Assembly: GCA_049516875.1 (NCBI GenBank) | Contig: JBEKSS010000009.1 | Location: forward strand, 32,001-96,000 | Direction: 5' to 3' | DNA length: 64,000 bases | Source: Candidatus Bathyarchaeia archaeon | GTDB taxonomy: Archaea > Thermoproteota > Bathyarchaeia > Bathyarchaeales > Bathycorpusculaceae | Part shown: positions 1,440-38,772 of the stretch, piece by piece | Layout: each line of letters opens with the position of its first letter | Numbering within the stretch: position 1 is the stretch's first letter | Notes under the pieces: model-generated | What the model saw: the letters and a program-made list of their open reading frames with translations, nothing else | Databases searched by the model: none | What the model was told of the DNA's origin: nothing | Made by a program: the position numbers and the translations under genes

Positions 1440-2241
1440 TATATCCGCAATAATGTCTTATTACATTTTTCCATCCCGATGAATAACTTGCCGAGTTGCA
1501 CGGCGAAGGCGACGGATCCCATTCCTGCCCGCACGCTAAGTTGAACGAAAAGCTGTGTCAGCATAGTCTTCGTATTGTGTTTAACTATTCTCATGTATTC
1601 ATCGTACTGCCGGTTCTCTTTATTACCCAGATGCAGATCAATGGTCTTAGCATACAGTTTTACGGTAGTAGGTTTGTCTTCGATTAGGTTTCTTAGGAGG
1701 GTTAGAGGGGTCGAGATTAATGTGCTTTCTTCAGATTTGGGGTAGACAAGAAGAACGATTTGCAGTTTGGCAATGCTAAACTGTAGGCTATTATTTGATA
1801 GTAGTCGGCGTTTGATTTATCCCTCTTGTATTTGGCATCTATTATGAGTGGATATTCTTCGTTGACTGTCTTGACCACTATGTCAGGTATGATTCGTATT
1901 TTTCCTTCTTTTACAAGGGAATTGAAGCGAGATTGCTTTTCAATTTGATAGCCCTTAAAATCTGGGTCTTCGGTAACTATTTCTTGAATTATCTCCGTCA
2001 TGAAATCTTGGTATACCTTATTCATATTGACAATAAAATTAAACCCTCGTGATCGCCCCTTATGGACGCTACGGATGAATCTTTCCTCAAGAATTAATTT
2101 CGAAAGCTTGATTATTTCTTCATAATTTTGGTTGAGTCGATTAAACTTGACCCGATCATGTTGGTTCTCCATAATCAAATAGCGTATTGGCATCGAACTG
2201 TTTGCTTCCTGAGAAGTAAACAAAAAGTCCCTCAATTTCAC
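1440..2241 (-). pseudogene. mcrC: McrC-like restriction nuclease subunit remnant (5'-truncated, frameshifted near 1760)
   Basis: Motifs FNRLNQNY, FIVNMNKVYQDF, IIPDIVV, IIDAKYK and ADYYQIIAY match McrC. The expected VLLVYP continuation lies in another frame after about 1760. The N-terminal half is missing and there is no mcrB. The 3' end is approximate. Confidence 0.75.
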
Positions 2242-36103: not shown

Positions 36104-36305
36104 CCTCCCACCTCCTCTTCTTGTACGCTGAGCAATAATTCGAAGCAGTACTAATGGTTTAAGCCTCCATTGTCTATGTCCGAACAGCCAACCAGAATCC
36201 GACAGTGCGCGTCAATCATGCCACGCATTTCCCCATGAGACGTGCACTCAGATCTATCACGAGTGTAAGAATAGATTTGGAACAGAATAGGATCTAATTC
36301 TGAGC

Positions 36306-36515
36306 TAATTCTGAAAAACGCCTTTATAATTCGCAGGCCATGACGAGTTTGGAGGTTGAGAACAAATCGGCAACACCTATTCCTTCAAAAAGGGCTCGTA
36401 AAGGCCCAGAGAAGTCAAGCTTTTTTCGTCTCTCCTTTCTCCTCCTACTGCTCTGGGCCCTTGCGAGAACTCGAGAAGGAGTGGGTTATGCTGATGCATC
36501 GAGGTGGAGAAAATG
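36306..36515 (+). ncRNA. Putative structured leader RNA, copy 1 (promoter + hairpins + RBS)
   Basis: BRE/TATA GAAAAACGCCTTTATAAT. 17-bp stem 36395-36411/36451-36467. CU-rich loop TTTCTCCTCCT complementary to the downstream RBS AGGTGGAGAAA. Homologous to 38510-38720 on the minus strand, with a compensatory change. Confidence 0.65.
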
Positions 36516-36686
36516 AACACACAATTGCTGCTCGAAGAGAAACATGCCGTGCTGAAGAATGAACTCAGCGAGAACTTGCAGAAGAAACATTCTTTGGAAT
36601 TGAAAATCAACGAACAGTTCGAGCAACTGAAAAGAATAGAGATTTCACTGGAAAGACGCGCTCGTACAACAGCAGACGAGGAGTAG
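36513..36686 (+). CDS. 57-aa coiled-coil protein downstream of leader copy 1
   Basis: RBS GAGGTGG and ATG; Leu/Glu/Lys heptad pattern. Confidence 0.65.
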   Translation: MNTQLLLEEKHAVLKNELSENLQKKHSLELKINEQFEQLKRIEISLERRARTTADEE

Positions 36687-37030
36687 CAATCTTAGCACGC
36701 ATTCTTAATAGTTCCAACTCTAGTCTCACTCGTCAAATACCCAACGGCAAAGGCTGACACGTTGTACGTGCCCGTTTTCAGGCCTTCGGAAATACTTTAA
36801 TGTCCAGAGCTGTTCGTCAAAGCGCCTCTTGAGCCGTTGTCACCAGTAGCGGATACAATGGCGCCGGCGCGCGCTTTGCTTAAGCGTTGTTTGCTTGTTG
36901 ATGCTTTGATCTTTGCGATAACGGGCGCGCAAAACAAACAATCATAAATCAGTCCTTGAAGCTGCAATGTAGCGGTCATAAGCCTTTAATACAGAGATCC
37001 CAGAAAATGTTCTTCAGGAGGAAAAGCAAA

Positions 37031-38359
37031 TTGTCTAAGCGGTGGTTGCTAGCAGATGTCCTAATGTTTGCCATAGCTTTAAGCTTCGCAGCTCAAATAT
37101 GCATCTTCAATACCACAACGAAACAGAATGCCGTGGGAATCGTCTACGGCGCCAACGGTCCACTCGGAGGCGCGCGGGTGTATGCAGAAGGAGACAACGG
37201 CTCAGGATCCGCCATAACCGACAGTTCCGGACACTACACTCTGACTACGGGCCTGATGACTGGGACTTACAACTTGACAACCTTGGCCTACGGGTACATT
37301 GACAGCGAAGTAGACTCCGTAAGCGTAACAGTTGGCCAAACCACATCAGGCGTGAACTTTGACCTACAGCTTTCCGGCGCAATCTCAGGCATAGTCACTG
37401 ACGCAGTGAGCCAGAGCCCGATCAACGGCACTGTAATCTTCGCGAACCTTGCAAACGGTTCTGGAACCTTTGGATTTTTCGGCACCACAGGGACTGATGG
37501 GAAATACTTCATGGCGACAAACCTGCCAACCGGAACGTACAACGTCTCAATGGAAATCGCACCAGACGGATATTTCCGTCAAATGACGACGGCAAACGTC
37601 GTTGCGGGAGTTGAAACCAAGAATGTAAACCTTGCCCTAGCAAGATCGGGAATCCTCTCAGGAAAGGTAGCGGCACCAAACGGCACAGGCCTCTTCGACA
37701 TTGATGTCATAGCTTCTAATGGCACCACGTACTTTGGTACTGCCACAACGGATTCATCAGGCAACTACAGGATTGCCACAGGACTGGGAACAGGCACCTA
37801 CACCGTGGAAGCTTTCGGTGACGGAAACTTCACAACGTACACTGGCACTGTGGCGGTTACTGCTGGCCAAGAGACGAGCGGCATAAACATGGAATTAACC
37901 CCCATCACGACGCCTCCGACACCTTCGGGCACGATAACCGGACGCGTAACAGACCAGAGCAACAACCCTATTAGATTCGCGTCGGTCACGGCCAGTGGGA
38001 GCGGCGGCTTCGGTTCAGGCGATACCGACAGCAACGGCTACTACAACATCTCAAGCGGATTGGGAGACGGAAACGACTACAACGTCACTGCAACGGCATC
38101 AGGCTATTATGATGCATCTTATCCAACTCTCGTCAGTGTCACAGTCGGCCAGACAACACCCAACATCAACATCCAGATGACCGCGCAGCCAGCACAAACC
38201 TTCGGAACCATCACCGGCACCGTTACAGGAGCTTCAAACCCGATTCCAGAGTTTCAGTACCCATTGATGGCAATGCTCTCACTGACACTCGTAGCTGCGG
38301 TAGCAGGCAAACTGATGCTCAAAACGAAACGCCACAAGAACGCGGACAACGCACCATAA
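37031..38359 (+). CDS. Surface protein with four carboxypeptidase-regulatory-like beta-sandwich repeats and a PEF-CTERM sorting signal
   Basis: Signal peptide; repeats G.V.....TDSSG.Y....L.TGTY.V; C-terminal IPEF, TM and basic tail; RBS AGGAGG. Confidence 0.88.
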   Translation: MSKRWLLADVLMFAIALSFAAQICIFNTTTKQNAVGIVYGANGPLGGARVYAEGDNGSGSAITDSSGHYTLTTGLMTGTYNLTTLAYGYIDSEVDSVSVTVGQTTSGVNFDLQLSGAISGIVTDAVSQSPINGTVIFANLANGSGTFGFFGTTGTDGKYFMATNLPTGTYNVSMEIAPDGYFRQMTTANVVAGVETKNVNLALARSGILSGKVAAPNGTGLFDIDVIASNGTTYFGTATTDSSGNYRIATGLGTGTYTVEAFGDGNFTTYTGTVAVTAGQETSGINMELTPITTPPTPSGTITGRVTDQSNNPIRFASVTASGSGGFGSGDTDSNGYYNISSGLGDGNDYNVTATASGYYDASYPTLVSVTVGQTTPNINIQMTAQPAQTFGTITGTVTGASNPIPEFQYPLMAMLSLTLVAAVAGKLMLKTKRHKNADNAP

Positions 38360-38365
38360 AATCTC

Positions 38366-38377
38366 TCCTTTTTTTTG
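38366..38377 (+). terminator. Oligo-T archaeal terminator candidate
   Basis: Run of eight T about 10 nt after the stop of the PEF-CTERM gene. Confidence 0.5.
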
Positions 38378-38512
38378 TCAAAAACCCTTTCGCATCCAAT
38401 ATGCGACCCTCGTGCCCCTTGTTACAGCCCAAAAACAGTTCTCTTTCTCAAATTCTTGAAGAATACTTACATCAAACAATAAGTTTCTATCCGAACAGAA
38501 GCTGAACAGCAT
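38378..38512 (-). CDS. 44-aa small ORF downstream of leader copy 2
   Basis: Manual translation MLFSFCSDRNLLFDVSILQEFEKENCFWAVTRGTRVAYWMRKGF after AGGTGGAAAAAG, in the same position as the ORF after copy 1. Confidence 0.4.
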   Translation of the reverse strand: MLFSFCSDRNLLFDVSILQEFEKENCFWAVTRGTRVAYWMRKGF

Positions 38513-38720
38513 CTTTTTCCACCTAGAAAATTCAGTACAGACCCCCTTCAAGTTCTCGCAAGGGCCCGGAGCAGGGGCTTGGAGGAGAAAGGAGAGTGAA
38601 AAAGCTTTTCAACTTCTCCGGGCCTTCACGAGTCCATCTGGAGGGATGGGGCGTTGCTGATTCGTCTCAGCTTCCGATGTTCCCATTGCTCGTGAGCTAT
38701 TAAGGGGTTTTTCAGAATTA
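38510..38720 (-). ncRNA. Putative structured leader RNA, copy 2
   Basis: Minus strand has TAATTCTGAAAAACCCCTTAATAG promoter, GCTGA/TCAGC hairpin, 17-bp stem (38616-38632/38555-38571), CTCTCCTTTCTCCTCC loop, RBS and ATG. Confidence 0.65.
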
Positions 38721-38772
38721 AGTCCAAATCCTTTCCAAATCTTTTTTACTTCACTTGTGGTTGCAGGTGGCC

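Follow-up and report, generated by a model that had tools for sequence, protein, structure and literature searches.

The hairpins of the Staphylococcus RNAs RsaE/RoxS and RNAIII expose a conserved, pyrimidine-rich loop complementary to GGAG-type ribosome-binding sites (RBSs). Here, we describe an archaeal RNA element with a loop of this kind, which stands as an inverted pair in a 64,000-nucleotide stretch of a Candidatus Bathyarchaeia archaeon genome (GCA_049516875.1, contig JBEKSS010000009.1, positions 32,001 to 96,000; hereafter the window, or G000:C9:32001-96000, whose own coordinates are used below unless a contig is given). Like RsaE/RoxS and RNAIII, the element has several sibling copies per genome and a regulated promoter, the latter being predicted here. 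It is archaeal, however, and is without sequence or Rfam relationship to these RNAs; its putative seed is longer (13-24 nt), sits on a rod of ~33 base pairs (bp) and is mostly fused to an open reading frame (ORF) for a small protein, and its targets are candidates only. A structured RNA domain and a small ORF likewise share one transcript in SgrS-SgrT, SR1-SR1P and RNAIII-hld. In the Bathyarchaeia family, some copies have lost the ORF and kept the RNA domain and, in contrast to those dual-function small RNAs (sRNAs), this domain, with a presumed regulatory role, stands before the genes of two or more unrelated small-protein families and before others. The ROSE and fourU thermometers are also pyrimidine-rich 5'-leader elements complementary to a downstream Shine-Dalgarno (SD) sequence; whereas the SD of a thermometer lies inside a helix, that of the Bathyarchaeia element is not part of the structure, and specific support for its pairing with the loop was not obtained. 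Among archaea, the sRNAs of Methanosarcina and Haloferax that target RBSs or untranslated regions are likewise promoter-driven and ~100-200 nt long; they show no homology to the element and are known from a single species or a single genus, whereas covariation supports the structure of the Bathyarchaeia family in at least 15 genera.

We are highly confident that the two arms of the window, referred to as copies 1 and 2, belong to a genuine and new RNA family that is selected for its structure and is specific to the Bathyarchaeia lineage. The arms face inward (~36272-36520 on the plus strand and 38745-38495 on the minus strand) and show a mean column identity of 81% over ~290 columns. The BLAST match between them has an E-value of 6.9e-24 within the genome, and the resemblance is thus far beyond chance. 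A first-pass annotation of this DNA had described them as two copies, and all the features that it listed were found where it had placed them; the pair is real, but the genome holds four copies (the other two lie on contigs C7 and C2) as well as two simpler hairpins that share their loop. As that annotation had proposed, covariance models were built and searched against related genomes. Model R1 was made from 14 sequences with the consensus stem only, and model R2 adds to the same design a 5' hairpin (P1), an outer helix (P2) and an extended main stem (P3). With R1, the element was found in 24 of the 151 genomes and 15 of the 70 genera of the home taxonomic family, at one to five copies per genome. 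With R2, it was found in 9 of the 151 genomes of an order-wide sample and, outside the home family, in only one genus of a second family (2/25 genomes). The genomes searched are metagenome bins, and absence means that the element was not found in those bins. Alignment A6, made with R2, comprises 49 copies from related Bathyarchaeia of one order.

When one genome per prokaryotic species was scanned with an exact pattern, 28 loci were obtained. Model R1 upheld 21 of them, every one from an assembly titled Bathyarchaeia or Bathyarchaeota; the seven others, of which six bore bacterial titles and one was named 'Euryarchaeota archaeon', were not confirmed by R1 and were rejected as chance matches. 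Rfam 15 at its gathering thresholds matched no family in the whole 64-kb window, and in E-value mode only chance-level matches appeared, both around the copies (best on the element mir-335, 17.9 bits versus a threshold of 64) and in five related loci (MIR8008, 34.5 versus 66). The best Rfam look-alikes were plant microRNA precursors at about half their gathering scores. These scans agree with the first-pass annotation, in which the element was not recognised as a known riboswitch. A full-text literature search returned no description of such an RNA in Bathyarchaeia, as judged from the listings and the opening parts of the abstracts.

The predicted fold is an unbranched rod of ~165 nt per copy, composed of P2, a 23-pair P3 and a terminal pyrimidine loop, and comparison of the 49 copies indicates that it is under selection, as the first-pass annotation had supposed from two copies. 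Double (compensatory) changes were found in 29 of the 37 modelled pairs, as compared with a mean of 19.5 in shuffled alignments, and in 151 cells, as compared with a shuffle mean of 66.6; neither value was reached in any of 500 shuffles. Standard pairs occupied 81.5% of cells, in comparison with 35-49% when the 3' partners were slid by 1-3 columns. Alignment A6 was fitted to R2 and is hence biased toward structure; in the earlier alignment A5, fitted to the stem-only model, 23 of 37 pairs had double changes and 79.3% of cells were paired. The changes were distributed over P3 (20 of 23 pairs doubly changed, 84% of cells paired) and the two segments of P2 (8 of 9 pairs, 74%). The 17-bp stem noticed at the outset is present in both copies, continues upward to the 23 modelled pairs and is enclosed by P2. 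The small 5' hairpin P1 also lies where it had been drawn, but its covariation is weak: only one of its five pairs is doubly changed, with 83% of cells paired, and its middle pair is unpaired in 20 of the 49 copies.

When folded alone, copy 1 gave -62.3 kcal/mol (z = -2.29), with a minimum free energy structure that forms P2, P3 and the helix TCGGCA/TGCTGA, while copy 2 gave z = +0.25, with P1 and P3 kept in the centroid. The support for the structure is therefore comparative and not thermodynamic. According to a reading of the aligned sequences, UCGGCA, which is the 3' half of P1, can alternatively pair with UGCUGA after P2 and so lengthen the rod in copy-1-type copies. An all-against-all screen of column covariation revealed no further helix or pseudoknot, with only the known pairs rising above the noise of purine/pyrimidine columns. 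This null result is expected because neither the loop nor the 5' GGAGG varies. Peptide coding inside the element was considered and rejected: no reading frame on either strand is stop-free in more than 13 of the 49 copies, in accordance with the unconserved frames described before, and loop lengths are spread evenly over the residues modulo 3 (16/14/19).

The loop of P3 is 21-46 nt long and 67-90% pyrimidine, usually with an unbroken pyrimidine run of 15-30 nt. Its core, CUCUCCUUUCUCC, is nearly invariant among the 49 copies, and a divergent copy in a low-GC relative (L105) carries the same loop on a stem of wholly different sequence. A T5-T7 run 5' of the core was counted in 17 of the 49 loops, a lower bound, since the T6 run of copy 1 was scored as 0.

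The promoter of the copy 1/2 type, ATTCTGAAAAAC followed by TTAATAA, precedes 35 of the 49 copies; in copy 1, it consists of the motif plus a TATA box, and the motif and TATA box reported upstream of both arms are thus of the common type. In 28 of these 35 promoters, a palindrome, [AG]GAAT-N7-9-ATTCT, lies directly upstream and may serve as an operator. Ten copies have an unrelated promoter (GTCCGACGG..CTTATAAG), and the remaining four, of which one is truncated at the end of a contig, fit neither description. Counted from the first T of the TATA box to the first G of the invariant GGAGG, the distance is 28-31 nt for both promoter types. Given how TATA box and start site are normally spaced in archaeal promoters, transcription should start at or just before GGAGG. 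Each copy is thus probably transcribed from its own promoter, into an RNA that probably begins at this GGAGG, a perfect SD-like GGAGGU. A T-run directly after the structure is present only in some copies, such as the T6 run in the relative of copy 2 in genome G004. Since oligo-T tracts terminate transcription in archaea, the T5 run behind copy 2 may be a terminator. The tandem duplication of AATTCTGA in the promoter of copy 1 (36296-36319) was also seen in same-genus relatives (L038 in G004 and L064 in G002), and neither in copy 2 nor in the others. In the G004 relative, the promoter is like that of copy 1 and the tail like that of copy 2, a sign that sibling copies may have recombined. The features of the two arms and of the gene enclosed by them are collected in Table 1.

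Table 1. Positions of the features of the two arms and the enclosed gene, in window coordinates
Feature	Position	Strand	Basis or remark
Copy 1 promoter region	36272..36331	+	read from sequence
Upstream half-site AGAAT, copy 1 promoter	36284-36288	+	
AATTCTGA, duplicated, copy 1 promoter	36296-36303 and 36307-36314	+	
TAATTCTGAAAAAC, copy 1 promoter	36306-36319	+	
GAAAAAC, copy 1	36313-36319	+	purine-rich, like a B recognition element (BRE)
TATA box TTTATAA, copy 1	36323-36329	+	
Copy 1 of the structured RNA	36347..36513	+	covariance-model match, 147.2 bits (R1), 132.3 bits (R2)
5' GGAGG, copy 1	36351-36355	+	
P1 small hairpin, copy 1	GTTGA 36355-36359 with TCGGC 36367-36371	+	
P2 outer helix, copy 1	36376-36386 with 36475-36485	+	
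P3 stem, copy 1	36395-36411 (plus 36413-36415) with 36451-36467	+	17-bp stem of the first-pass annotation, extended
Pyrimidine loop, copy 1	~36416-36449; core CTCTCCTTTCTCC at 36430-36442	+	
TTTCTCCTCCT, copy 1 loop	36436-36446	+	
SD-like AGGTGGAGAAA, copy 1	36502-36512	+	directly before ATG 36513
57-aa small-protein gene, family A	ATG 36513, stop ends 36686	+	ORF list; homologues behind other copies
Enclosed 467-aa gene	36956..38359	+	aa counted from TTG; ATG at 37008
44-aa ORF behind copy 2	38378..38512	-	doubtful gene
T5 run behind copy 2	~38385-38381	-	possible transcript end
Copy 2 of the structured RNA	38513..38679	-	130.2 bits (R1), 113.9 bits (R2)
P3 stem, copy 2	38632-38616 with 38571-38555	-	
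Loop core, copy 2 (plus-strand reading GGAGAAAGGAGAG)	38584-38596	-	complement of CTCTCCTTTCTCC
5' GGAAG, copy 2	38675-38671	-	
Copy 2 promoter region	38697..38745	-	includes degenerate upstream half-site
TATA TTAATAG, copy 2	38703-38697	-	
AATTCTGAAAAAC, copy 2 promoter	38720-38708	-	mirror of TAATTCTGAAAAAC at 38721-38707

In most copies, a conserved small ORF starts within ~15 nt of the 3' end of the element. Behind copies 1 and 3 this ORF belongs to family A (~57 aa, predicted coiled coil), and behind copy 4 to family B (~80 aa, often split into two ORFs). Differences at codon positions 1/2/3 numbered 633/553/968 among nine family A sequences and 156/122/246 among five of family B, the counts covering only the subsets that could be parsed by script; the excess at the third position indicates that both families are real genes. 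Neither family matched Pfam or NCBIfam, and searches of the ESM Atlas returned only unnamed clusters scoring below 0.9. The remaining copies precede short transmembrane peptides or nothing recognisable. The first-pass annotation had placed small ORFs behind both arms. The 57-aa ORF is indeed a conserved gene, but the 44-aa ORF behind copy 2 is not conserved: its ATG is lost in the nearest relative (G004, loci L022/L038), where the T6 run follows directly after the structure. It is therefore doubtful as a gene, and copy 2 may be a non-coding RNA. The element does not fit a type I toxin-antitoxin locus, which would pair a small hydrophobic toxin ORF behind a structured leader with an overlapping antisense RNA: families A and B are hydrophilic or coiled-coil proteins, although a few copies do precede transmembrane peptides, and antisense promoters were not sought systematically.

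The split form of family B, seen at many loci (for example L045, L047, L048, L052 and L078), consists of an N-terminal ORF of 20-40 aa, MD..K..SAA..KV.T.H, and a conserved C-terminal part, …FRIMIFLHSAKDFPSVLRLYG…, in another frame, which may reflect two genes, frameshifting or decay. At locus L068 (G109:C20:2793-7748), two elements stand in tandem on the same strand, 1.8 kb apart, each before a family A ORF, one of which looks degraded at its 5' end.

Regulator genes lie beside many of the elements. Upstream of 21 elements, at a distance of ~170 nt, is a divergent gene for a 100-aa ArsR-type (HTH_5) regulator, followed by a gene for a 150-aa membrane protein. At 10 elements, a same-strand gene for a 183-aa double winged-helix regulator ends ~80 nt upstream, with a gene for a 92-aa membrane protein before it. 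Genes for MacB/FtsX-type permeases occur downstream of 14 elements, and those for PAP2 phosphatases downstream of five. Copies 3 and 4 of the genome stand in these canonical regulator contexts. Copies 1 and 2 instead have as neighbours a NIPSNAP-like gene and, as read from its translation, an aldo-keto-reductase-like gene. The 467-aa protein encoded between the arms carries four CarboxypepD_reg-like repeats (PF13620, 3.2e-36, four stretches) and a C-terminal hydrophobic anchor; it is predicted to be a secreted or anchored protein and is not itself part of the RNA family. It ends ...NPIPEFQYPLMAMLSLTLVAAVAGKLMLKTKRHKNADNAP (38255-38359, plus strand), with a PEF motif, a hydrophobic helix and a basic tail, which we take to resemble an archaeosortase PEF-CTERM sorting signal, although NCBIfam returned no match.

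The two simpler hairpins, found by searching the genome for complements of the loop, have the loop CUCCCUUCUCUCCUUUCUCCCC(U)C and are designated type III. They were considered as complementary, kissing-loop partner RNAs (G000:C10:43430 and C3:114478), a candidate that was rejected because G.U bias makes both of them same-sense type III hairpins. Among 30 homologues, the stems contain 56 G.U pairs and only three A.C mismatches on the strand with the pyrimidine loop, and that strand is therefore the RNA. BLAST with the C10 copy detected homologues in 66 of the 151 family genomes and 39 of the 70 genera, mostly at one copy per genome. The exact type III pattern, a strict one whose counts are a lower bound, occurred in 17 of 401 class genomes, all from the home family (the genome itself and 16 of 103 others), and in none of 297 genomes of other families. 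Type III has its own BRE/TATA block, AGAAAAATTTAAAAGCAAC, and a stem with 15 predicted consensus pairs, seven of them with compensatory changes; behind the stem come a T-rich spacer and another invariant block that resembles a TATA box. A flavodoxin/WrbA-like gene (FMN_red, ~160 aa) lies behind the hairpin, at a distance of ~170 nt, in 24 of 30 loci. As judged from these sequences, the element appears to be a more elaborate, multi-copy derivative of an older and more widespread hairpin RNA that has the same loop and as a rule occurs once or twice in a genome.

An invariant block of ~29 nt, CACTTATAGCTTGTGGAACAATCTTCTAT, was observed between the type III loop core, which it follows at ~65 nt, and the flavodoxin/WrbA-like gene, which lies ~100 nt further on (G000:C10:43329-43549, minus strand, L112/L114, and 29 homologous loci, L115-L143). 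The block resembles a TATA box with an operator that extends to the start site, and the gene may have its own tightly controlled promoter. The hairpin of the C3:114478 region (L113, ~1960-2010, plus strand) is an orphan, with a 9-bp stem and the same loop; no promoter block or flavodoxin-like gene is recognisable beside it, and it converges on a gene of the opposite strand.

As a whole, we consider the element to be best explained, with a probability of roughly 45%, as a family of regulated leaders or sRNAs whose loop pairs with purine-rich SD-type sequences. The part of this explanation that makes the loop a base-pairing seed for such sequences, acting mainly in trans, is put forward somewhat more tentatively. 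The comparisons make the element the 5' leader of a small-protein mRNA in most copies; some, copy 2 among them, have no conserved ORF. The exposed, CUCC-rich loop would mimic the anti-SD tail of 16S rRNA and seed pairing with purine-rich SD-type sequences. These would lie mainly in other mRNAs, the transcripts being sRNA-like or dual-function, and possibly also in the RBS of the transcript itself. Translation would thereby be tuned as an output of the ArsR-like transcription factors encoded nearby; the AGAAT-N8-ATTCT palindrome beside the promoter is their probable binding site. The CUCC repeats are regarded as anti-SD-like because the 3' end of the 16S rRNA of this genome is GGATCACCTCCT (G000:C16:1-560, a contig that starts inside the 16S gene), and the likeness makes purine-rich SD-type RNA the most economical partner. 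Roughly a third of 2003 first-ATG gene starts in the genome have an SD-like motif upstream, by a crude count. A partner in trans is favoured since the loop caps a rod of ~33 bp, away from the RBS; since the same loop stands before families A and B, transmembrane peptides and the flavodoxin-like gene; and since it is kept in copies without an ORF (copy 2 and its G004 relative). The first-pass annotation had read the element as a new structure-selected RNA with an anti-RBS loop acting in cis, or alternatively as a trans-acting RNA with an anti-SD-like loop. The structural part of its interpretation stands, the cis part is not specifically supported, and its alternative is, as a hypothesis, the most attractive reading.

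Several observations weigh against pairing of the loop with SD-type sequences. The evidence for expression, for transcript ends and for the strand of the main family consists of promoters, ORFs and G.U statistics; the fold of copy 2 by itself is not better than that of a shuffled sequence; the regulator genes are not found beside copies 1 and 2 themselves; and no partner of the loop is backed by covariation, the loop being invariant. The cis pairing first proposed for copy 1 exists as complementarity, with TTTCTCCTCCT in the loop matching AGGTGGAGAAA at the RBS in 10 of 11 positions. Over the 49 copies, however, the loop paired with its own tail at a mean of -15.3 kcal/mol and with the tails of other copies at -14.9 kcal/mol, and the own tail beat composition-preserving shuffles (p<=0.05) in only 8 copies (mean z -0.44). 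Against 400 crude gene starts, the own RBS ranked at a median percentile of 0.17, with 14 of 23 copies below 0.2 and 4 below 0.05, the 23 being those in which a start codon was placed by script; this signal may reflect only the purine richness of the tails. As own, foreign and shuffled tails perform alike, we attribute it to that richness rather than to position-specific complementarity, and specific pairing of the loop with the RBS in cis was rejected.

Candidate partners in trans were also found. The best non-self complement of the loop at a start codon in the genome is GGAGAAAGGAGA, directly before the ATG of the gene for transcription factor B (TFB). The sequence GGAGAAAGGAGAA (G000:C1:473959-473971, plus strand, L144 ~660-672) makes up both the TFB RBS and the closing codons of a Gar1-like gene; it is kept in many genera, and 12 of its 13 positions are complementary to the RNA loop. 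With one genome per genus (30 loci, two unparsable), at least 11 contiguous complementary nucleotides were present upstream of TFB in 14 of 17 genera with either form of the RNA, as compared with 2 of 11 without it, and the site decays in the main clade that lacks the RNA. Set against this, the presence of the RNA changes only three times on the TFB gene tree, leaving two to three independent contrasts (sign test, p = 1), and the site lies in coding sequence. The TFB RBS as a trans target is thus a lead and not a result, being not significant given the phylogeny. It is highly doubtful that the loop would be a trans anti-SD mimic of this RBS, by which a stress-responsive ArsR-like regulator and the sibling RNAs would throttle the basal transcription machinery. 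A further lead, of predicted pairing only, is GGAGGAAGGAG in the 3' domain of 16S rRNA, a purine-rich conserved helix region with which the loop core can pair, with one G.U.

Among the other explanations of the element, a protein-binding leader deserves the most weight, although we regard it as unlikely. Sm-like, KH-domain and cold-shock-type proteins prefer pyrimidine tracts, and such a protein could dock on the tract with its CUCC/UCUCC repeats and, in every transcript that carries the hairpin, control stability, termination or translation. This would suit a loop that is invariant across unrelated downstream genes and two architectures, the short units at fixed spacing with a T5-T7 run 5' of the core in at least 17 of the 49 loops, and the lack of an RNA partner backed by covariation; the repeated CUCC spacing fits an oligomeric RNA-binding protein equally well as an SD-type partner. 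On the other hand, the unbroken invariant stretch of 13-24 nt exceeds typical protein sites on single-stranded RNA, and no gene for an RNA-binding protein recurs beside the elements. Less probable still is a switch acting strictly in cis, in which the loop would alternate between its own SD/start region and the 5' GGAGG, for example with temperature. Besides the complementarity of copy 1, a variant loop in a G002 copy (L040), CCAUUUUCCUCC, matches GGAGAAAAAUGG at its own start codon in 11 of 12 positions, as read by eye, and the purine-rich tails place 14 of 23 copies below the 20th percentile of crude gene starts. Such a switch is at odds with the equivalence of own, foreign and shuffled tails described above, with the position of loop and RBS at opposite ends of the rod, and with the same loop in ORF-less copies and in type III, ~170 nt from the gene.

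We consider a small-molecule or ion riboswitch very improbable. One might be suggested by the conserved 5' leader structure with its invariant unpaired positions, and by the nearby genes for ArsR/SmtB-like regulators, which are often metal-responsive. However, the element has neither a multi-helix junction nor a conserved internal-loop core, its invariant nucleotides being in the terminal loop and the 5' tail; the RBS lies outside the helices; the downstream genes, for small proteins, transmembrane peptides and, in type III, flavodoxin-like proteins, form no single metabolic or transport pathway; and no Rfam riboswitch was matched. Scarcely credible is the explanation that the arms, two stretches of ~230 bp inverted around a cargo of 2 kb, are terminal inverted repeats of a transposon or of a miniature inverted-repeat transposable element (MITE) carrying the 467-aa gene, or a peptide-coding duplication. 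No transposase is enclosed, the similarity at the outer edges is promoter sequence common to solitary copies, and no such pair was seen in the same-genus genomes that were searched, where the copies are solitary. Other copies are likewise solitary and stand in conserved synteny with genes for regulators, membrane proteins and small ORFs, and the G.U-rich covarying stems without a conserved frame indicate selection on RNA. Given this synteny and the lack of a frame, neither MITE ends nor a peptide frame, both named in the first-pass annotation as findings that would refute it, holds. In our view, a promoter-RNA module was duplicated locally around an unrelated gene, giving the inverted pair.

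Few uncultivated archaea are as abundant in sediments, peat and soils as the Bathyarchaeia. In the literature searched, no regulatory RNA was described for them. With its covariation backing and clear sequence signature, the family can be used in RNA libraries and genome annotation. As a regulon, it would tie together ArsR-like regulators, two small-protein families and a flavodoxin/WrbA-like gene, which points to an unrecognised stress circuit, possibly one of redox or envelope stress. The invariant, anti-SD-like loop would offer a handle on SD mimicry or sequestration in trans, which is little explored in archaea.

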